From assembly GCA_949299395.1 (NCBI GenBank), contig CASGAB010000002.1, positions 113,051 to 177,050 on the forward strand: 64,000 nt of DNA, given 5' to 3'. A model generated the notes under the pieces. The model saw only the letters and a list, made by a program, of their open reading frames with translations. It had not been told where the DNA came from and searched no databases. This DNA is from an uncultured bacterium. GTDB lineage: Bacteria > Bacillota_I > Bacilli_A > RFN20 > CAG-826. This document shows, one piece after another, positions 6,721 to 63,175 of the stretch (position 1 is its first letter; each line of letters opens with the position of its first letter). Both the position numbers and the translations under genes were made by a program.

Positions 6721-6809
6721 TGGCGGAGAAAAGGGGATTTGAACCCCTGCGCCTGTTACAGCCTACGAGCTTTCCAAGCCCGCCCCTTCAGCCTCTTGGG
6801 TATTTCTCC
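6721..6809 (-). tRNA. tRNA-Ser (anticodon GGA), long variable arm, CCA encoded.
   Basis: Reverse complement folds as a cloverleaf: acceptor GGAGAAA/TTTCTCC, anticodon stem CGGGC/GCTCG with loop TTGGAAA, T-arm AGGGG-TTCAAAT-CCCCT. Confidence 0.85.
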
Positions 6810-18999: not shown

Positions 19000-19131
19000 A
19001 AATTTGTTTTGAAGGATAAATATACCAAAGACAGTAACGGGCTAGTCCTTAATAATGTTACCGAGGTTAATTAATATAAATAAATATATCAACCTTATGT
19101 ATATATATCCTCAATATATAGGAGGTAAAAG
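19000..19131 (+). promoter_or_regulatory. Possible L10-leader-type autoregulatory mRNA leader ahead of rplJ-rplL.
   Basis: 132-nt leader with hairpin GTAAC-N18-GTTAC. Its position matches the Firmicute L10 leader, but the consensus was not verified. Confidence 0.3.
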
Positions 19132-28854: not shown

Positions 28855-31800
28855 ATGAAAAAGAATGGATTATTAGTCTTTTTTGCTTCAGTTTTTGCTT
28901 TATCATTTTGTTTATATATTAAAAATGATATTGGAAATAAAAAAGATTTGGATACAAACGTAATTGTAAGACTTAAAGATAGTGATGTTTATTCAAAAGA
29001 AGAGATGTCACGCGCTTTTTATAATGAATTAGTTTCAATAGTTTCATTTAATTATCGAAATGTCGAATCGATCGATGAAGTTTTAAATTTTAAAGTTTTA
29101 AAAGTAAATAGTGAAGATATTAATAAGATAAATAATATGTCGACTGTTGAATATGCTTATGAAGAAATCGAATATTATTTCGATCCAAGCGATCCAACTT
29201 ATGATTATTTTGGTTATAACGAAGTCCTTGATACCAATTATAGTGAAATCGAAATGAATATTGGTGAAGATATTAAAGATGGCGAAAATACGATAGTTGC
29301 TGTTATTGATAGCTGTTTAAACTATAATCATGAGGCTTTCCAAAATATTAATACTTCGACAATGCGTTATACAAAAGAAGATATTGATTCAAAGGCTGCT
29401 TCTAATGGATTTAATGCTAAAAATTATCTCCGAATTAACGATAAAATTCCTTTTTCATATGATTATTGTAATGATGATAATGATGTTTTAGCTAGAGATA
29501 CTCATGGTAGCCACGTTTCATCTTTAGCAGTAGGAAACGGACGATATAAAGGTGTGGCTAATGAAGCTCAACTCGCTTTTATGAAAGTCTTTACTGATAA
29601 TGGTGGAGGCTGTACTTCTGCAGTTTATTTAAAAGCTCTTGAAGATGCATATTTACTCGATGTTGATGCAGTAAATATGTCTTTTGGTAACTCTTTAACA
29701 TATGGAAAAACTACAACTGATTTAGCAGTTGAAGATGTTTTAAATAAATTAAGAGAAAACGGAACAAATGTTTTTATTTCCGCTGGTAATGATGGAAGAG
29801 AACAATTTAGAGGTTCTACATATGAATATTCAACAACATCTGCTTATGAAAGTGGAATGCTTGGTTCTATCGCGTTAAATGAAGATTCAATTACTGTTGC
29901 TAATGCTACTTTAAGTGATGATCAAAGTAATGTTCATGCTTTAGTTGATAAAAAAAGACCAATCGAACTTTTTGATAGAGCAGTTGATCATACTGGTCAA
30001 AGCGAAGGATCTGATGAATGGAGAATCACCGATTTTCCAACTGAATATCGTTTTTCCGATTTAATCGATGAAGGTAATTATGAATACGTAATGATTCCTA
30101 ATAAAGGAAAAGATGAAGATTATGCTGGTTTAGATGTAAAAAATAAAATAGCAGTAGTTGAAAGAGGAGAACTCAATTTTACAGTTAAAATTTATAACGC
30201 TATTAAAAATGGAGCTAGCGGCTTAATTATTTATAACCAAAAAAGTGATACAGAAATTCCATTTTTCTCATTTGCAATCGATGATGCTGCACTAGAACAA
30301 TGTCCTGATATTCCTACAACCGTAGATCAATATGGCGAAACAATTTTTGATCTTTCTTATGTAAATATTCCTATTGCAGTTGCTTCTTATGAAGCAGGAA
30401 AAAGATTAAATGAAGCTGAAAATAAAGTTTTAAGTTTTTATAGCGAAGAACTTTCATTATCTTCATCAATGGGTGCAACTGCAGATTTAAGACTTAAACC
30501 TGATTTATCTGCTCCAGGTGAAAATATTTATGGTGCATGGAGTTACTATAGACCAAATAATAAACCAAATAGTGGAAATTATTATTTAGATGATGCTTAT
30601 ACCTATATGAGTGGTACATCTATGGCTTCTCCAAATTTAATGGGTGCTTATGTTTCTTTATTATCAACATATGGAATAGATTCAGATTATTCTAGAGAAA
30701 CAGCTGCTAAATTACTTAGAAATAAGATGTATTCCAATACAACAATTTTAGAAGATGAAGATGGCGTTCCTATTACTCCAAGAAAACAAGGAAATGGTTT
30801 AGTAAATATTGATTCAACCTATAATTCTAGTGCTTATCTTTTATTTAATGATGATAATCAAATGGAACTTGGAAATGATTCAATGATTCAAAATGGAGTT
30901 ATTTCTGGTGATATTCATTTATTTGAAGAAAGTGCATCAAATAATTATGAAGTTAGTATAAAAATAATGGCTCCAAAAATTATTGAAGAAGATTATTTAG
31001 GAAAGACAGTAAAACTTGTTGGAACTAAAGATGTTTTACTTGAAGAGAAGATCCTTAACAATAATTTCCAAACTAAATTTGGTGATAACATTTTTACAAT
31101 TGATGAAGTTATTTCTAGTTCAACTAGAGAATATCTTTCTCAATTTGAAAACGGAACATATTTAGAAGGTTATATTACATTTAAGAGTGAAAATAACACC
31201 TTAAATATGCCTTTTTTAGGATATTATGGTGAATATTATGGTGTTAGACCTTATGAACCATTCTCTTTTGAAAAAGATCCAAATAAACTTTATGAATCTG
31301 ATTTAATGGATGATTATTTAAGAGAAAATCTTAATCAAAGTAATGCTTATACCGGTTCATATTTTATGATTGGTGATAACGAAATTTATTATAAGAGAAA
31401 CATTTTATCTTCTTCATATTCATTTATTAAACAATACAATGAAATGGAAGCGGTTTATGATGAATATGACGATATTTATCATATTTATACCGGTGAAGAT
31501 TATAGTCGACATAGAGGAATTATTGTTCAACTTTATATGTTACGAACAATAAAATCTAACCGCGTAACAATGTATGATAAAAACGGTAGTATGCTTGAAG
31601 AGTTCTATCTTAAAGATAATTTATTTGATACATCTTTAACTCATGAACTCTATAGAAACTACATTTTAATTCAAGATACTCGTTTAACAGGAAGAGATTA
31701 TTATACTCATAGAAGTTATTTATATATTCCGCTTGTAGAAAACGATAGCTTAGGTATTTTTAAATATCAAAACGGTGAATATACTCTCGAATTTGAATTT

Positions 31801-32511
31801 ACTTTTGTAGATGATTCTAAATATGTTGAAAGATATCAACTTCATATTGGTGAAACATATAAATCGATTCCAGAAGTTTATGATGTTTCTTTATATCAAA
31901 ATTTATTAAGAGTTTACGTTAAAGAACAAGAAATCACTGAAATTATTATTAATAATAAAGAATTTGATCTTGGTTTATTAGGAACAGTTGGAACTGGTAG
32001 ATATTATTTTGATCTTAATTTAACTAATTATACTGAAGATATCTTTATTTCAATAAATAATGCTGATGGAAATGTTTCATATTTTAAATATTTTATTGAG
32101 AATAATATGTTCGTTTCTGGTGAAAATATCGATGAAAGCATGAATATGATGATAGAAGTTAGAAATAAAACTACCTATCTTATTCATTTAGTTGATAGCT
32201 CTAATTATCTTGTTGAATTAGAAAAAGAAGTATTATACGGATTTGTTCCTGAATCATATTTCACTGATGTTCAAGCAATTGATGGAAATTCAACCGTTAC
32301 TATCATGTATCAAAATGTAACAAGTGAAAATGAACTTATTAGATTTAATTCATCTTATTCATCATTCTTGATTAATAACGAACTTAATAGTGATGGGTTA
32401 TTAAAACTTTTCTTACCTTTAATTATTAGTGTTTCAATAATTGCAGGTATAACAATTATTGTAATTTCTGTAGTTTTAATTAAAGATAATCGAAAAAAGA
32501 ACAAAAAATAA
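28855..32511 (+). CDS. Cell-envelope subtilisin-like serine protease (S8 family, lactocepin/PrtP-like) with a signal peptide, a large insert between the catalytic His and Ser, and a C-terminal TM anchor.
   Basis: Catalytic triad motifs AVIDSC (Asp), DTHGSHVSS (His) and GTSMASP (Ser). 1218 aa, N-terminal signal, and a C-terminal hydrophobic helix followed by KDNRKKNKK. Confidence 0.8.
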   Translation: MKKNGLLVFFASVFALSFCLYIKNDIGNKKDLDTNVIVRLKDSDVYSKEEMSRAFYNELVSIVSFNYRNVESIDEVLNFKVLKVNSEDINKINNMSTVEYAYEEIEYYFDPSDPTYDYFGYNEVLDTNYSEIEMNIGEDIKDGENTIVAVIDSCLNYNHEAFQNINTSTMRYTKEDIDSKAASNGFNAKNYLRINDKIPFSYDYCNDDNDVLARDTHGSHVSSLAVGNGRYKGVANEAQLAFMKVFTDNGGGCTSAVYLKALEDAYLLDVDAVNMSFGNSLTYGKTTTDLAVEDVLNKLRENGTNVFISAGNDGREQFRGSTYEYSTTSAYESGMLGSIALNEDSITVANATLSDDQSNVHALVDKKRPIELFDRAVDHTGQSEGSDEWRITDFPTEYRFSDLIDEGNYEYVMIPNKGKDEDYAGLDVKNKIAVVERGELNFTVKIYNAIKNGASGLIIYNQKSDTEIPFFSFAIDDAALEQCPDIPTTVDQYGETIFDLSYVNIPIAVASYEAGKRLNEAENKVLSFYSEELSLSSSMGATADLRLKPDLSAPGENIYGAWSYYRPNNKPNSGNYYLDDAYTYMSGTSMASPNLMGAYVSLLSTYGIDSDYSRETAAKLLRNKMYSNTTILEDEDGVPITPRKQGNGLVNIDSTYNSSAYLLFNDDNQMELGNDSMIQNGVISGDIHLFEESASNNYEVSIKIMAPKIIEEDYLGKTVKLVGTKDVLLEEKILNNNFQTKFGDNIFTIDEVISSSTREYLSQFENGTYLEGYITFKSENNTLNMPFLGYYGEYYGVRPYEPFSFEKDPNKLYESDLMDDYLRENLNQSNAYTGSYFMIGDNEIYYKRNILSSSYSFIKQYNEMEAVYDEYDDIYHIYTGEDYSRHRGIIVQLYMLRTIKSNRVTMYDKNGSMLEEFYLKDNLFDTSLTHELYRNYILIQDTRLTGRDYYTHRSYLYIPLVENDSLGIFKYQNGEYTLEFEFTFVDDSKYVERYQLHIGETYKSIPEVYDVSLYQNLLRVYVKEQEITEIIINNKEFDLGLLGTVGTGRYYFDLNLTNYTEDIFISINNADGNVSYFKYFIENNMFVSGENIDESMNMMIEVRNKTTYLIHLVDSSNYLVELEKEVLYGFVPESYFTDVQAIDGNSTVTIMYQNVTSENELIRFNSSYSSFLINNELNSDGLLKLFLPLIISVSIIAGITIIVISVVLIKDNRKKNKK

Positions 32512-39347: not shown

Positions 39348-39404
39348 TTGAGCATTTTTATCTTGAATATTTTCTAAAATAATCTACTATATTAGGTTGT
39401 AAAG

Positions 39405-39618
39405 ATTGATAGAGGCGCGATCAAAAAGAGTAATTAATGGAGGAGACATCCGATGAAGTTAATGAAAGGTGCGATCGCCGAAACAAGTTTAAGGTATTAA
39501 ACTTGATTGGTCTATGGGAGAAGATCCTTATAGACTCCTAGAAATTCTAGAGGCGCTATCGATGTAAATCTTTTAAAAAGTTAAGATTGCATCGAGCGAT
39601 GCAATCTTTTTGTTTTTA
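39405..39618 (+). promoter_or_regulatory. Lysine riboswitch (L-box) with an intrinsic terminator (39583-39618).
   Basis: Conserved L-box blocks are present: GAUAGAGGCGCGAUC...AGAGUA, UGGAGGAG, GGUGCGAUCGCCGAAAC, AGAGGCGCUAUC. A terminator hairpin AAGATTGCATCG/GATGCAATCTT + T-run sits immediately before the RBS. Confidence 0.8.
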
Positions 39619-50959: not shown

Positions 50960-51036
50960 TGGGGCGAAATACCGGGATCGAACCGGTGAATGCTTGGTTC
51001 ACAGCCAAGTGAGTTAACCGCTTCTCCAATTTCGCC
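50960..51036 (-). tRNA. tRNA-His (anticodon GUG).
   Basis: Reverse complement: acceptor GGCGAAA/TTTCGCC, anticodon stem CTTGG/CCAAG with loop CTGTGAA, T-arm CCGG-TTCGATC-CCGG, 3' CCA. Confidence 0.8.
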
Positions 51037-56990: not shown

Positions 56991-58121
56991 ATGGCGACTA
57001 TTAAGAATTTTTTAAAATTAAAAAAGGATGATTCTTTTAAAAAGACTCCTCTTTGTGAAAGCGATATTGTTGCTTTGACAGCACTTTCTTATGCTGATTT
57101 TAAAAATTCTATTTATTTTGATGAGAAAACAACTCATGGAATGGTACCTTTAAGTATTTTCGGAAAAAATACAATTATTTCAAAACTTAAAAAGAAATAT
57201 TTAGCATTAGGAAGAGGTTATATCCAATTTTTAAGCCTTCTTTTTTCTGCTTCTAGATATGAAGATGTAAAAATTGGTTATTTCTGTGATCGATTTAATG
57301 AAGACAAAGATACACAATTTTTCGCTCTAACTTATTATATTGATGGAAAATATGTAATAGTTTTTCGAGGAACTGATAATACGATAACTGGCTGGAAAGA
57401 AGATCTTAACATGGCTTTAATGGAAAAAATTCCAGCTCAAAAATTAGCTAGAGATTATGCTAGAAAAGTTTTAAAAGAAGTAAAAGGAAAAGTTTATATT
57501 GCGGGTCACTCAAAGGGTGGAAATCTTGCGTATTATACATATTTCAACCTCAATAAAAGAGAAAGAAATAGAATAAAGTTTGTTTATAATTTTGATGGTC
57601 CTGGTTTTAGAGATGATGAATATGATTACAGTGAATATGGAAAAAAATTCCATAAATATGTAACAGAAGACGATATTATTGGGATGATTTTTGATACTTC
57701 AAATAACTGGGAAATTGTTCCTTCAACAAGAATTAATATTTCAGCTCATGATTTATTAACCTGGAAACTTGATAGAAAAACAAAATATACAACACTCCAA
57801 AGACTGAGTAGTTTAACTGTTTATTCTAGCTGTTTTAACACAACTTTTAATACTTGGTATTATCAAACGAACAGAAAAGATGCAAAAACTTTAACAAAAT
57901 TTGTTTTTGATTTAGTTGAAACTAATAAAATTATGACTCTAGGTGGCTTACTTAAAGATATTCTTTTTGCGGGTGAGGCTTATTATAAAACTATTGAAAA
58001 TTATGATGAAGCAAGTAAAAAGAAGATTAGACTGATGCTTAGAGAACTTGGGAAATTATATTTAAGTAACTTATTAAAAGATAAAAAGAAAATAGATAAA
58101 CCAAAAGAAGAGGTAAAATAA
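56991..58121 (+). CDS. DUF2974/Mbeg1-like alpha/beta hydrolase (class-3 lipase-like).
   Basis: GHSKGGNLA nucleophile elbow; 376 aa. Confidence 0.6.
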
Positions 58122-59596
58122 TGCAAAAATATGTTTTAACTATTGATCAAGGTACAACATCGACTAGAGCTTCTTTAATCGACAAAGAAGGCAATGTTTT
58201 TTATAAATCTCAACAAGAGATTAAATGTTTTTTTCCTCATGATGGATGGGTAGAACAAGATGCCATTGATGTTTGGTTATCCGTATTAAATGTCATAAAT
58301 GATTTATTAGCAAAAACTAATTTAACATATGCCAATATTGATTCAATTGGCTTAACAAATCAAAGAGAAACAACAATTATTTGGGATAAAAAAACAGGAA
58401 TGCCTGTTTATAATGCCTTAGTTTGGCAATCAAGACAATCTGCGTATATTTGTGATGCTTTAGCTGATAAAACTCAACTTGTTAGAGAAAAAACGGGCTT
58501 AATTATTAATCCTTATTTTAGCGCTTCTAAAATTCGTTTCATCTTAGATCATATAGAAAATGGACAAAAAAGAGCAGAAAATGGCGAATTAATGTTTGGA
58601 ACAATTGATACATGGGTTATGTATAAACTTTCTAGTGGAAAGATTTTTAAAACTGATGTTACAAATGCTTCTAGAACAATGTTATTTAATATTAATACAC
58701 TTGAATGGGATGATGAACTTTTAAGATTATTTAATATTCCTAAAATTATGTTACCTGAAGTTTGCCCTTCATCTCATTTTTTCGGTTACGCATCTTTATT
58801 AAAAAAGAATTTAAAGATTTGTGGTGTAGCGGGCGATCAACAAGCAGCATTATTTGGGCAAAACTGTGTTAAAGAGGGTGATGTTAAATCTACCTATGGC
58901 ACTGGATGCTTCGTTTTAATGAATGTTGGTGAAAAACCAATTTATGATAAGGGTGGACTTATTACTACAATAGCATGGCAAATTGATGAAAAAGTAATTT
59001 ATGCAATTGAGGGTTCTGTTTTTGTCGCCGGAGCTTCAATTCAATGGTTAAGAGATCAAATGAGAATGATTAAAAAAGCATCAGAAAGCGAAAAATATGC
59101 TTTAAATTGTGATTCTTGTTTGGGCGTTTATGTAGTTCCTGCTTTTGTTGGGTTAGGCGCTCCTTATTGGGATGATGACTGTCGCGGTGCAGTTTTTGGA
59201 TTAACTAGAGGGACAACAAAAGAACATTTTATTAGAGCTACTTTAAATTCAATTGCTCTTCAAACAAAAGATGTAATTAAAGAAATGGAAAGAATTTCTT
59301 CTAAAAAAATCGATAGTTTAAGAGTCGATGGTGGAGCTAGTGAAAATAATTATTTAATGCAATATCAATCAGATATTTTATCTTCTAAAGTAATTTTACC
59401 TAAGAATTTAGAAACAACATCTTTAGGCGCTGCCTATTTAGCAGGTTTAGCTAGTGGATATTGGAAAAATATCGACGAAATAAGTAAAGTACATAAGATT
59501 CAAAAAACTTTTGAACCAAAAATGGCTCAAGAGGAAGTATTAGAAATTGATAAAAAGTGGAAAAAAGCAATCGAAGCAACTAGAATTTTCAAATAA
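58121..59596 (+). CDS. glpK: Glycerol kinase.
   Basis: FGGY motifs ([22 protein letters not shown]); 491 aa. Confidence 0.9.
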
Positions 59597-59607: not shown

Positions 59608-60585
59608 ATGCTGTATTATTTCTTGTTTAATAACTTTGAAGAACAAGTTTTGTTTGCGATAAAAAATATAGAAAAAATTAATGATTATAATATTATTTAT
59701 CCGAAATATTATAATTTTTTTGTCAAACATTTATTTAAGAAAAATTCGATAAATATCAATAATAATGGAAATAAAAATTTATTTTTAGGATGCGACGATC
59801 TTTTAAAAAATAAAGAAATAAAGGAAGAAGAGCTTTATGAAGAAAATGTTATAATTTTTGCTTCTAGTGAATTAAAGAATAAGAGTTTTATAAATATTAA
59901 GCTTTATTTAAAAGAGGAAACTTTAAAAAAGAAGTTATTTTCCTTGAAAATTCCACCATTATTTGACTATAAAAACCTAATAGCAGCTTCATTTTGTCCT
60001 TTTAGTGTATATTTAATTAATTTATATAATTTGAATTTAAATGATAACTCAATAGACAATACTTTTTTAGAGTCAACATATCTTCCTAAATTTCAAAATG
60101 ATTATGATGAAAATTTTGAAAAACATATAAAAATATTTGATAAAGAAATCACAATGCCATGCCGATATCATTGCAAGGATTCTGAAGGGGAAGTTTATAT
60201 TTTTAATAAAAATGTTTTCGATATGAACTCGATTTACGTTAGTTTGTGCTTGTTAAAAAGCGAAAATGTCGATATTAATGGTGTTTATTATATCAATAAC
60301 GAAGAAAAACATAATTGTTTAAAAGGCTTAACAAATCTTGATATCGGATTTAAAGATATTGATCCTTTTTCTATAGAAAATGAATCTTATATAATTGAAA
60401 AACTCTTTAAAAATGATAAATCCGATAAAATAAAAACTACTTCATTAGGCTTTAAAAATAGTTATTTAGATTGGTCAAAAATAATTAATAATTTATTACT
60501 AATTCTTAAAAATAATAAATTTAGTAAACAAAAGATTCCAAACTGCAAAATATGTAAATTTAGCGATTTATGTGAACTTTATTAG
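59608..60585 (+). CDS. Cas4/AddB-like PD-(D/E)XK-superfamily nuclease with a 4Fe-4S iron-staple, and an N-terminal ~125-aa extension of unknown function.
   Basis: N-terminal cysteine in the FCPFSVYL context (compare Cas4 YCPRRFYL). The extreme C-terminus CKICKFSDLC is CX2CX5C, nearly identical in pattern to Cas4 CKYCIFSVIC. The KIKTTS stretch sits where the EIKTS motif III lies. No SD sequence. Confidence 0.5.
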   Translation: MLYYFLFNNFEEQVLFAIKNIEKINDYNIIYPKYYNFFVKHLFKKNSININNNGNKNLFLGCDDLLKNKEIKEEELYEENVIIFASSELKNKSFINIKLYLKEETLKKKLFSLKIPPLFDYKNLIAASFCPFSVYLINLYNLNLNDNSIDNTFLESTYLPKFQNDYDENFEKHIKIFDKEITMPCRYHCKDSEGEVYIFNKNVFDMNSIYVSLCLLKSENVDINGVYYINNEEKHNCLKGLTNLDIGFKDIDPFSIENESYIIEKLFKNDKSDKIKTTSLGFKNSYLDWSKIINNLLLILKNNKFSKQKIPNCKICKFSDLCELY

Positions 60586-60587
60586 TT

Positions 60588-61997
60588 ATGAGATTGTTAA
60601 AATATATCAATGATACGCCCCGTCATTTAATAGAGGTTGATGATTGGAATTCATTTTTTGGCGAATTATCGACTCCAATAATTATTAAAAAAGAAGGAGA
60701 TTTAATTTCTTTAATTGAAAAAATTAAGGTCAGTGAAGCTCGATATTTTTTTGATGAAAGAACAATTTCTTTTAAGGTTGCTTCAAACGTTTCTTTTAAG
60801 AAGCTTAAAGATATAGATGATTTTAATAACTTATTTATCCAAGATAACGAGGAAGCCATTAATATTGAGGAAGACTTTTTAATATCGCTATTAAAGTCTA
60901 CGATTTTTAATGGTGAAGTTTTTGATGAAATTAAGAAAGTTAAAACATTAAAAATTAAGTTAAGAGCAAAAGATTTTAGCTATATTAAAAAATACTTAGA
61001 GGAAAACAAAAACAAAATTATCAAACTAGATCTTTATAAACTGATGTTAGATATTTCAAAAAGTGGCAAAAATGTCGCTTTATCAGAATTAAATTATATT
61101 CCTTATGAATATAACTCAAATAACGTTCAGGTTCTTAATATTTTTAAAGATTTAAATTTAAAAAACAGTTTAATGAATAATTTTTTGAATGATTTTAAGA
61201 ACTTCTCATTCGGCTCTTTTGTTGAATTTTTTAAAAATAATAAAGAAAAAATAGAAATAAAAAGATTTAAAACTAATAGTGAATTATTTAATAAGATTTT
61301 GATGACTAAATCTAAACAGATAATTTTTGAAGATAAAGATGATTTAGATGATTTTAAAAATTATTTGTTATCCTTAAATGTAAATGTCTTTAATATTGAA
61401 AAGATAGAAAAAAGAGTTGTTAGTTTTTTAATTTATATTTATGAATATCTTTTAGAGATCCCAAATAACGTGAGTAAAGTTTTATTAAAAAAGATAGATA
61501 TTTATAACTTAATAAACGAAAAAATTAATTATTTTAAAAATAATTTAGATATTTTTACCTTTTTAATAGAAGAAGTTGGTCTTTATGAATTATATGATGA
61601 TTTAGATTCACATTATTTGATTAATGAACTTATAAACATTTCAATTAATCATGACATCAAAACTTTTTACAATATCTTAAGAATAATTAAAGATTTAGAT
61701 CTTTCGTTTTTAAGTAATATAGATGAAAATATCAAACTTTTTAGTATTCAGGAGCTCACTTATATTAATAAAAAAGGAAGTGAAAATGTGTTAGTTTTAT
61801 CTCAAAAACGTAAAAAATATACTGAAAATGTTTTATATAAAGGAATAATAATGAAAAATTCATTATTTCTTAAAGAGATATTAAGGTTATCTAAGCATTT
61901 AATTATTTTTAAAAAAGGGCAATATGACGAAAAAATATTTAAGAAAGAGCGAATTGATTCGCTTGCCTTTCTTATTAAATTATTGTCCTATTTGTAG
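60588..61997 (+). CDS. Hypothetical 469-aa protein, K/N/I/L-rich, no recognisable domain.
   Basis: Uninterrupted ORF, 3-nt spacing from the upstream gene, no SD. Confidence 0.5.
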   Translation: MRLLKYINDTPRHLIEVDDWNSFFGELSTPIIIKKEGDLISLIEKIKVSEARYFFDERTISFKVASNVSFKKLKDIDDFNNLFIQDNEEAINIEEDFLISLLKSTIFNGEVFDEIKKVKTLKIKLRAKDFSYIKKYLEENKNKIIKLDLYKLMLDISKSGKNVALSELNYIPYEYNSNNVQVLNIFKDLNLKNSLMNNFLNDFKNFSFGSFVEFFKNNKEKIEIKRFKTNSELFNKILMTKSKQIIFEDKDDLDDFKNYLLSLNVNVFNIEKIEKRVVSFLIYIYEYLLEIPNNVSKVLLKKIDIYNLINEKINYFKNNLDIFTFLIEEVGLYELYDDLDSHYLINELINISINHDIKTFYNILRIIKDLDLSFLSNIDENIKLFSIQELTYINKKGSENVLVLSQKRKKYTENVLYKGIIMKNSLFLKEILRLSKHLIIFKKGQYDEKIFKKERIDSLAFLIKLLSYL

Positions 61998-62020: not shown

Positions 62021-63175
62021 ATGAAAGTTGCAAAAATTAATAAAGAACAATTAGAAAATATTTTAAAAGGATTAAATGTAACTCCTCAAGCTTTTGAATA
62101 TTTAGACCAAATCTATGATATTTATGAAAATGTTACAGATGGAGCTTTTGAGGTTTTAAATGCTGCTGTTTTTAAAGAATATAATGCAATAAATCCGGTT
62201 GTTATCGTTCTTTATATTATTAACGAACTTGGTTTTTATTTTAATAGTAGAGGCATGAATAAAGAAGGAATTAAAGCTTCTTTTAATGATGAAAATTTCA
62301 TTTCTTTTATTTGTTCAATTGTTTGTGATAAATATTTAACTAATGAACAACTTAACTATAAATCTCCAGCATTTTTAAATAAGTTTAACCCTCAAATATC
62401 GACTTTATCGCTATATCTTAATTTTTGTTTAAACATTTTAAATAAAGACATGAAGTTAAATAAATACGATTCTTTAATTAAAGATATGTTAAAGAATTCG
62501 TTTTCTTTAGCTCAATGTATCGTCAATCTTTTAGTTAATGCTTTCGAAGTTGAAGCTTTTTCAACTTGGAGAACGATGCATGAAAATGAATGTATTTTAT
62601 ATTGTTTAGTTAAAAATGGCGTAAAAACATTCGATTCCTATTTTAGACATATTCAATATTCTTTAGCATATCGTGGACAAATAAAAGATAAAGAAAAAAC
62701 TGATGAAATTTTCCAAGAAATAAAGCAAATCATGAAAGAACATGATTTAAAAAGTAAAGATATGAAAAAATTCATCGAATATGGTTATCTTTTTTCAATT
62801 GAAAATAAAGAATTAAACGTTGATTTTAAACTTAATTTTAGAGATGGTGTTGAGACTTTAGCAGGTTTAAAACATTATTCAAAAATATATGAATTATCTA
62901 GTGAAATTGCGCATTCTTCGCCACTTTTAATTTTTTCTAATCGTGAATATTATTTTAATATTACTCTTTTAAATTTGTATGAATCATTTTTTAGATTAGA
63001 ATCCGTTTTCTTGGGTTTTTATAAAGCTGTATCAACAAAAAATGAAGCTGCACACTATGAGACTTTAGAAAAAGTCTATCTTGCACAGCTTCATAATATT
63101 CATGATGGAATAGCTAGAGCTTTAAAAATTAGAGCTTCTAAGGCTGGACATCTCGATAACAAGAGCCGCCAATAA
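62021..63175 (+). CDS. Hypothetical 384-aa protein with a C-terminal Rx5H (HEPN-like) motif, KIRASKAGH.
   Basis: Uninterrupted ORF with no recognisable family. The motif observation is weak. Confidence 0.45.
   Translation: MKVAKINKEQLENILKGLNVTPQAFEYLDQIYDIYENVTDGAFEVLNAAVFKEYNAINPVVIVLYIINELGFYFNSRGMNKEGIKASFNDENFISFICSIVCDKYLTNEQLNYKSPAFLNKFNPQISTLSLYLNFCLNILNKDMKLNKYDSLIKDMLKNSFSLAQCIVNLLVNAFEVEAFSTWRTMHENECILYCLVKNGVKTFDSYFRHIQYSLAYRGQIKDKEKTDEIFQEIKQIMKEHDLKSKDMKKFIEYGYLFSIENKELNVDFKLNFRDGVETLAGLKHYSKIYELSSEIAHSSPLLIFSNREYYFNITLLNLYESFFRLESVFLGFYKAVSTKNEAAHYETLEKVYLAQLHNIHDGIARALKIRASKAGHLDNKSRQ

Follow-up and report, generated by a model that had tools for sequence, protein, structure and literature searches.

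Which protein is encoded by the first of two open reading frames (ORFs) that lie between glpK and a DUF5677 gene in an uncultured low-GC bacterium? The gene, here termed ORF1 (protein P0001), is carried on contig CASGAB010000002.1 of assembly GCA_949299395.1, within a stretch of 64,000 nucleotides (nt) that was analyzed as a whole and is referred to as the window. A sequence-only reading of this DNA had described ORF1 as an orphan Cas4-like nuclease with degenerate catalytic motifs. We consider it probable that ORF1 is instead a vestigial nuclease domain of AddB (RexB) that shrank in situ, because the corresponding slot holds bona fide divergent addB-addA genes in more distantly related bacteria. 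The genes of the locus are:

58121..59596, + strand: glpK (glycerol kinase; Pfam FGGY_N/FGGY_C), the upstream synteny anchor
59608..60585, + strand: ORF1 (P0001), the subject of this report, an intact ORF of 325 amino acids (aa)
60588..61997, + strand: ORF2, the operon partner in the addA position, 469 aa
62021..63175, + strand: the DUF5677 gene (Pfam DUF5677, E 1e-11), the downstream synteny anchor

ORF1 starts 11 nt past the stop codon of glpK and ends 2 nt ahead of ORF2. The G+C content around the region is approximately 21-28%, and the contigs in ENA and Logan that carry the P0001 protein come from one organism.

Because ORF1 evolves too fast to be traced, the DUF5677 gene was used as a slow-evolving anchor. 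Metagenome contigs were scanned, resulting in 58 loci with DUF5677 proteins that were 34-60% identical, and the ORFs upstream of DUF5677 were read and classified with hidden Markov models (HMMs). Orthologues of ORF1 were found at the identical syntenic position in at least four other species, and the window and four related species shared the order glpK, ORF1, ORF2, DUF5677. Other loci had the following content in the slot:

Locus L029: glpK, a 781-aa ORF, a 1055-aa ORF, then DUF5677
Loci L013, L020, L021, L023 and L062: a 756-774-aa ORF (cut at the contig end in L023), a 1016-1041-aa ORF, a 215-231-aa ORF, then DUF5677
Loci L018, L034 and L036: the C-terminal part of a large ORF directly upstream of DUF5677
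Nine loci: glpK directly upstream of DUF5677, the slot being empty

The ORFs of about 770 aa were found to contain a complete PDDEXK_1 domain (E 1e-26 to 1e-29), with addB_Gpos as the best NCBIfam match and with the motifs S..L..Y..CPF.YY, G..aH.I.E, GRxD, (I/V)DYKTG, LQLP.Y and CxYCx5C all intact. The ORFs of about 1030 aa contained UvrD-helicase, UvrD_C and PDDEXK_1 domains and matched addA_Gpos best (E 1e-102 or better). The order and orientation of addB-addA in the slot of these relatives are the same as those of ORF1-ORF2 in the window. In a neighbor-joining tree of DUF5677, which was not bootstrapped, the window clade was located among lineages that carry addA/addB beside DUF5677.

The AddB-like ORFs of the relatives (L029:518-2860, L020:51-2354, L062:41-2356, L021:1-2268 and L013:3-2324) encode proteins of 756-781 aa, compared to about 1160 aa in the addB_Gpos model. 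A Pfam match was found for the C-terminal 300 aa or so only, the N-terminal approximately 445 aa being without a Pfam match, and the NCBIfam scores were all far below the equivalog cutoffs. Judged from these sequences, AddB appears already strongly reduced and divergent in this group of relatives.

ORF1 itself belongs to a very small family, known from only about five species of uncultured low-GC Bacilli. A word-indexed search of 5.8 billion proteins returned nothing but the ORF1 protein itself. An exhaustive HMMER search of 1.84 billion representatives of 50%-identity clusters gave two further clusters, P0002 (328 aa, 32% identical) and P0003 (236 aa, 33% identical), and an alignment-based search added P0004 and P0005, while no relatives of ORF1 were found in a scan of viral contigs. 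The five homologues, window protein included, are approximately 30-35% identical and share 42 invariant positions. The alignment divides ORF1 into the following elements:

59608..59958, + strand: residues 1-117, a lineage-specific N-terminal extension that aligns with P0002/L009 only
59959..60585, + strand: residues 118-325, the putative iron-staple domain relic, the part conserved in all five homologues
59995..59997, + strand: the codon for Cys130, the candidate first staple Cys, within L-x3-S-(F/Y)-C-(P)-F-x2-(Y/F)-L
60184..60210, + strand: a possible vestige of RecB motifs II/III, E193 and I198-F199-N200-K201, from the five-homologue alignment and low-confidence hhalign alignments
60325..60342, + strand: G240-L-T-N-L-D245, the most conserved motif of the family, nearly invariant
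60427..60444, + strand: K274-I-K-T-T-S279, the stretch equated with EIKTS of Cas4 in the sequence-only reading
60544..60573, + strand: C313-x2-C316-x5-C322, candidate staple Cys two to four, all three invariant

The cysteine ligands of an iron-sulfur (Fe-S) cluster had been called clearly conserved, and this was borne out. C130, C313, C316 and C322 (C-x182-CxxCx5C) are invariant in the five homologues and match the staple signature of the Cas4/AddB type, whereas the remaining Cys vary. The first of the four lies in the context L-x3-S-(F/Y)-C-(P/E/N)-F-x2-(Y/F)-L and the last three at the extreme C-terminus, after a predicted helix. Aromatic residues stand beside the Cys, and the loop before the second Cys is rich in lysine and includes the invariant K307, six residues ahead of C313. 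A zinc ribbon and a cluster loop of the EndoIII type (Cx6Cx2Cx5C) were considered and rejected, since there is no Cys six residues upstream of C313 and the fourth conserved ligand is located 183 residues away.

The C-terminal CxxCx5C with its preceding helix was the sole part of ORF1 to match known profiles. The profile comparison with Pfam proposed in the sequence-only reading gave a sub-threshold match of PDDEXK_1 to this end of the protein (positions 194-247 or 205-247 of 247, E 0.07-0.23, 11.8-13.5 bits against a cutoff of 22) and no match of PF01930. The phage exonuclease families phrog_1870 and phrog_69 also matched the C-terminal element (E 0.003-0.1). With hhalign the terminal helix and CxxCx5C aligned to a Cas4 profile, built as a 43-sequence alignment with the SSO0001 (4IC1) sequence, at E 6e-4 to 1e-3; the score of 30.6 was reached by none of 200 column shuffles (null 12.9±2.5).

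The ORF1 domain was likewise compared to the nuclease domains of the five syntenic AddB-like proteins. This gave a score of 34.3 over 104 columns (E 4e-4), against a column-shuffle null of 13.9±2.3 in which none of 200 shuffles reached the observed value. The alignment spans the last 90-100 residues and includes GLTNLD, an N-x-x-F ahead of the cluster loop, and CxxCx5C. GLTNLD was paired with an L(K/Q)G(L/F)xNxD...F..DP stretch of the AddB-like proteins, a pairing not significant for that stretch alone. The N-terminal Cys motif on its own found the CPF motif of the AddB-like proteins at the right place, with a score of 23.5 compared to a null of 10.7±2.2 (0/150 shuffles). Both Cys motifs thus align collinearly with the iron-staple motifs of Cas4 and AddB, two proteins that belong to the same iron-staple PD-(D/E)XK class (PMC3321194, PMC5704561). 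By its sequence ORF1 appears to be a member of this class, as seen at its two signature motifs only.

The catalytic part has fared differently from the cysteines. RecB motifs I-IV are not conserved in ORF1; a motif-III-like lysine, K201, and a β1-like glutamate, E168, are what is left, and no search or alignment recovered a D...(D/E)xK pattern. K201, N200 and I198 are invariant in the five homologues and position 193 is always D or E. Extended (low-mact) hhalign alignments to the Cas4 and AddB-like domains, which are low-confidence mappings, agreed in pairing C130 with the first staple Cys (Cys32 of SSO0001), K201 in (I/V)-(F/L)-N-K with the lysine of motif III, and E168 with the β1 glutamate. 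They differed in placing the motif II Asp at Y187 or at D/E193 and the motif III acid at F199 or N200. With either mapping the motif I His, at least one metal-binding carboxylate and QhxxY would be lost. Comparison of the ORF1 core with Cas4 by hhalign in global mode gave no significant alignment. When ORF1, its homologues and the family consensus were searched against Pfam, NCBIfam and PDB sequences, no match covered the core and only sub-threshold ones at the C-terminus were obtained. The observation that canonical motifs II and III are hard to find was therefore correct, the motifs being absent or degenerate, and the idea that they are merely shifted found no support.

Equating KIKTTS with EIKTS of Cas4 is probably wrong. 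K274 and I275 are invariant but residue 276 is K, R or N, and the stretch forms part of a basic loop, KNKxSxKIxTxSxGF. It lies 37 residues ahead of CxxC, whereas in Cas4 a helix, two strands and a helix, about 70 residues in all, connect motif III to the cluster. KIKTTS is too near CxxC to accommodate these elements and so is not motif III. In addition, hhalign placed the stretch in a loop region of the AddB-like proteins downstream of the catalytic core.

Structure prediction with AlphaFold2, which had been suggested for inspecting the active site, was run and gave no confident model of its geometry; the predicted local distance difference test score (pLDDT) was 30.6 when the single sequence was used and 41.1 with the five-sequence alignment. 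Since the prediction was unconfident, we infer the fold of ORF1 from the motifs instead. Between the Cys motifs the model with pLDDT 41 has a helix, a helix, three strands, a helix, a strand and helices. This predicted secondary structure would be compatible with a PD-(D/E)XK core and is by itself no evidence for one.

The N-terminal extension of about 117 aa ahead of the domain was found to be real coding sequence and to resemble nothing: there was no Pfam match above threshold and no similarity to the N-terminal domain of the AddB-like proteins (E 0.3). It is common to the window and P0002/L009, which share for instance a YPxYYxF motif. As a general trait of the family it did not hold up, being missing from P0003-P0005, whose genes begin approximately 20-27 nt past glpK.

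We compared rates of evolution across the locus. Between the window and locus L007 the identity is 36% for ORF1 and 26% for ORF2, compared to 88% for glpK and 74% for DUF5677. Flanking genes are 70-88% identical between the closer species, and the window glpK shares 86-88% identity with that of its relatives. The ratio of nonsynonymous to synonymous divergence (dN/dS) among the three closer species was 0.20-0.25 for ORF1 and 0.31-0.41 for ORF2, and 0.05-0.09 for glpK, the lipase-like gene and DUF5677. Synonymous divergence (dS) is near saturation, approximately 0.8-1.6, and ORF1 is intact in all five species. ORF1 and ORF2 are real genes, and their rate of evolution is several-fold above that of the surrounding genes. 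ORF1 is under relaxed yet real purifying selection and is not a pseudogene. Fast evolution under relaxed constraint is as expected for a relic.

ORF2 starts 2 nt past ORF1 in the window and overlaps ORF1 by approximately 23-35 nt in the relatives. No Pfam, NCBIfam, PADLOC, PHROG or PDB match was found for it. By eye it resembles helicase motifs II, V and VI, and this resemblance was discarded as the motifs are not conserved among orthologues. ORF2 is a probable AddA relic, its link to AddA being positional only.

In two species the ORF2 orthologues carry an in-frame TGA at one shared codon (L004:9466-9468, L012:7385-7387, L006:9478-9480 and L010:7382-7384), at which L007 and L011 have Leu. The TGA divides the gene into parts of approximately 260 and 210 codons, and the downstream part is still open and conserved. 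Use of genetic code 4 (TGA as Trp) does not explain it, since normal genes of these genomes terminate with TGA and Leu is encoded at the corresponding codon of relatives. Possible explanations are a nonsense mutation common to both species, a split gene or a readthrough site.

Among known systems, the AddB/RexB proteins (B. subtilis AddB, PDB 3U44; TIGR02773 addB_Gpos; PF12705 PDDEXK_1) resemble ORF1 in the four-Cys staple, in a first motif of the S..L..Y..CPF..Y.L type, in the C-terminal CxxCx5C after a helix and in a lysine of the loop that precedes the second Cys. The gene is also located immediately upstream of a coupled ORF, in the same glpK-DUF5677 slot as the divergent addB of the relatives. 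In B. subtilis AddB a 4Fe-4S cluster is coordinated by C801, C1121, C1124 and C1130. Without this cluster the nuclease domain unfolds and DNA ends are no longer bound, and a lysine of the loop preceding the second Cys touches DNA (PMC3321194). ORF1 differs from AddB/RexB in size, with 236-325 aa compared to approximately 770-1160 aa, and in lacking the inactivated SF1-helicase-like (Chi-recognition) N-terminal domain, with 0-117 residues ahead of the nuclease domain instead. GRxD...DYK...QLPxY, intact in the syntenic AddB-like proteins, is not conserved in ORF1, the best Pfam score is 13.5 bits where 22 are needed, and the partner ORF is without helicase motifs.

We propose that AddB would have shrunk in place until the C-terminal iron-staple PD-(D/E)XK domain of about 200 aa alone survived. 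ORF1 would have kept the four cluster-ligating Cys and the lysine-rich loop before the second Cys, and lost the His helix of motif I, the motif II Asp, the motif III acid and QhxxY. The helicase-like N-terminal domain of approximately 450 aa would be gone, its place being taken in two species by the unrelated extension of about 117 aa, and the translationally coupled ORF2, without recognizable helicase or nuclease motifs, would stand in the place of AddA. We infer that a [4Fe-4S] cluster still supports the fold of ORF1; in AddB such a cluster stabilizes the domain and enables DNA-end binding. ORF1 is very probably not a nuclease, and by analogy with AddB it may still bind Fe-S and DNA. The suggestion of a DNA-binding or structural protein in place of an active nuclease was judged the most reasonable reading of the sequence. 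Such a non-catalytic protein would persist under weak purifying selection, probably in a complex with ORF2, given the coupling or overlap of both genes in every species; alternatively, its persistence would reflect late gene decay, and ORF1 may equally be a relic en route to the total loss seen in the nine related loci with an empty slot.

Modules that lost catalysis and were kept for binding or structure are known from the nuclease-like domain of RecC and the dead helicase domain of AddB (PMC3321194), and the nucleocapsid protein of virus TTV1 is derived from an inactivated Cas4-like nuclease (PMC5704561). The latter is a precedent for keeping a non-catalytic nuclease fold such as that predicted for ORF1. 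Unlike ORF1, whose partner ORF2 is unrecognizable, these modules act in well-defined complexes or virions.

Several observations weigh against descent from AddB. When both Cys motifs and the last helix were removed, the ORF1 core scored 13.2 against the AddB-like domains, which equals the null mean, and a HMMER search with the AddB-like domain profile did not retrieve ORF1. The score against Cas4 (30.6) nearly equals that against the AddB-like domains (34.3), and sequence alone can for this reason not tell apart descent from AddB, from Cas4 or from another iron-staple protein. The first and second Cys are 183 aa apart in ORF1, compared to about 155 aa in Cas4, 268-290 aa in the syntenic AddB-like proteins and approximately 320 aa in B. 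subtilis AddB, so that an AddB origin requires a deletion of about 90 aa. Comparison of ORF2, whole or split at the TGA position, with AddA, AddB and the 215-231-aa ORF (termed 'C') by hhalign stayed within the null. The DUF5677 tree is a neighbor-joining tree without bootstraps, and our view of the genome is that of this contig region, with the status of AddAB or RecBCD elsewhere in the genome lying outside it. The specific AddB ancestry of ORF1 therefore rests mainly on its genomic position.

A variant of the proposed descent is exaptation: ORF1 would be a minimal [4Fe-4S] module, non-catalytic and helicase-free, that serves DNA-end binding or redox sensing and forms with the rapidly evolving ORF2 a new two-protein system in genome-reduced Bacilli. 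Its roles would be for example end protection or recruitment of repair factors, with GLTNLD and KNKxSxKIxTxSxGF as the functional surface. We regard such a new role as rather unlikely.

Less likely still is the view of ORF1 as a solo (orphan) member of the Cas4 family that was gained separately from AddAB and inactivated later. Cas4 proteins (SSO0001, PDB 4IC1; Pcal_0546, 4R5Q; PF01930; TIGR00372) are single-domain proteins that resemble ORF1 in size, in Cys spacing (C-x182-CxxCx5C in a domain of about 200 aa) and in the C-terminal helix followed by CxxCx5C, the elements behind the Cas4 profile score given above. Solo Cas4 genes are also common, and an inactivated derivative exists in TTV1 (PMC5704561). 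Still, H62, D99, E113, Q131 and Y135 of SSO0001 are without counterpart in ORF1, only K115 (K201) and perhaps E78 (E168) being represented, and a conserved insertion of about 58 aa (GLTNLD ... KNKxSxKIxTxSxGF) precedes the last helix in ORF1. PF01930 and TIGR00372 did not match ORF1 even at E<=10 (Pfam) and E<=1 (NCBIfam), and there were no PADLOC matches for ORF1 and no relatives in viral contigs. No cas genes were annotated within approximately ±10 kb around ORF1 and no CRISPR-like direct repeats were found in the window. The surroundings of ORF1 are those of neither a CRISPR-cas locus nor a mobile element. All surveyed Cas4 proteins retain their catalytic motifs (PMC5704561), and ORF1 and its partner sit exactly where relatives carry addB-addA. 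The identification as an orphan Cas4 is disfavored in view of the profile searches, the genomic context and this shared slot.

Similarly improbable is an ORF1 that is still an active nuclease, with a non-canonical or relocated site built from E168, D/E193, N200, K201, D245 and K274. These residues are invariant or conservatively replaced in the five homologues, purifying selection on the gene persists, and in one of the extended hhalign alignments D/E193 falls at the Asp of motif II and K201 at the Lys of motif III. The PD-(D/E)XK superfamily is known to include cases in which catalytic residues have migrated. However, no alignment restores the D...(D/E)xK triad, the motif III acid being replaced by Asn or Phe/Leu, and the motif I His helix and QhxxY are without conserved counterpart. 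The gap between D/E193 and K201 is 8 residues compared to approximately 15-16 in Cas4 and the AddB-like proteins, and a helicase partner to feed DNA to a nuclease is not recognizable.

It is very unlikely that ORF1 and ORF2 are functionless, decaying ORFs (late pseudogenes) that are not yet disrupted: both evolve much faster than their neighbors, ORF2 has an in-frame TGA in two species, the slot is empty in nine related loci and the N-terminal region of ORF1 is variably present, but ORF1 stays intact in all five species despite the high dS, its dN/dS is far below 1, its 42 invariant positions include the four staple Cys, and the spacing and overlap of ORF1 and ORF2 are preserved. Equally unlikely is the view that ORF1 is an unrelated lineage-specific protein whose Cys bind zinc or another metal and resemble the staple by coincidence. 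The core is without significant similarity to anything, the structure models are unconfident and the significant alignments are limited to short Cys-containing motifs; against this, two separate motifs, S-(F/Y)-C-P-F-x2-Y-L and the helix with CxxCx5C at the C-terminus, match in the right order and each above all shuffles, all independent libraries that gave any match point to PD-(D/E)XK exonucleases, the stretch between the two motifs is predicted, at low confidence, to run alpha-beta-beta-beta-alpha-beta, and the genomic slot is that of addB.

If ORF1 is a vestigial AddB, it is an extreme and newly described variant of the AddB-type iron-staple domain, and the locus would be a clean natural experiment in the erosion of a large repair machine in a shrinking genome. 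B. subtilis AddAB comprises about 2,300 aa and that of the relatives about 1,800 aa; here, two small fast-evolving ORFs would be left of it. The last element to be preserved would be the Fe-S staple with the DNA-binding loop, the catalytic and motor motifs being gone. A surviving staple agrees with biochemical work in which the cluster proved to have a structural role and to serve DNA binding, not catalysis. Most likely this is an ordinary if tidy case of gene decay in a bacterium with a small genome, plausible rather than surprising to specialists, and it opens no long-standing question. With respect to method, an orphan that could not be placed by sequence search was placed by use of its slow neighbors as synteny anchors. 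With respect to annotation, the result guards against labelling ORF1 as Cas4 or a CRISPR component.

The DUF5677 gene was recurrently found directly downstream of addA (L018, L029, L034 and L036), downstream of addB-addA followed by 'C', which is without a Pfam match (L013, L020, L021, L023 and L062), and downstream of 'C' alone (L037, L048, L050-55, L058-61 and L068). On this pattern DUF5677, 'C' and AddAB may be functionally linked, a relation that seems to be undescribed in the papers searched, only two of which mention DUF5677.

The neighborhood of ORF1 and of each of its homologues has the order glpA-like gene, DUF1667, Mbeg1-like lipase, glpK, ORF1, ORF2, DUF5677, a convergent PRK/udk-like gene and the atp operon. 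The 3' ends of the DUF5677 gene and the convergent PRK/uridine-kinase-like gene overlap by 38 nt (63138-63175), and the overlap is kept in the relatives; the latter gene encodes 548 aa in full on the source contig. The window also holds genes of the size of rpoB/rpoC. Matches above the Rfam gathering scores were found at:

39402-39566, + strand: lysine riboswitch
19007-19108, + strand: ribosomal protein L10 leader
6724-6809, - strand: tRNA
50963-51035, - strand: tRNA

An ORF of 1218 aa at 28855-32511 (+ strand) encodes a subtilase (Peptidase_S8) with a PA domain and is flanked by rpoC and a galactose-utilization cluster (aldose epimerase, GalT and GalK).

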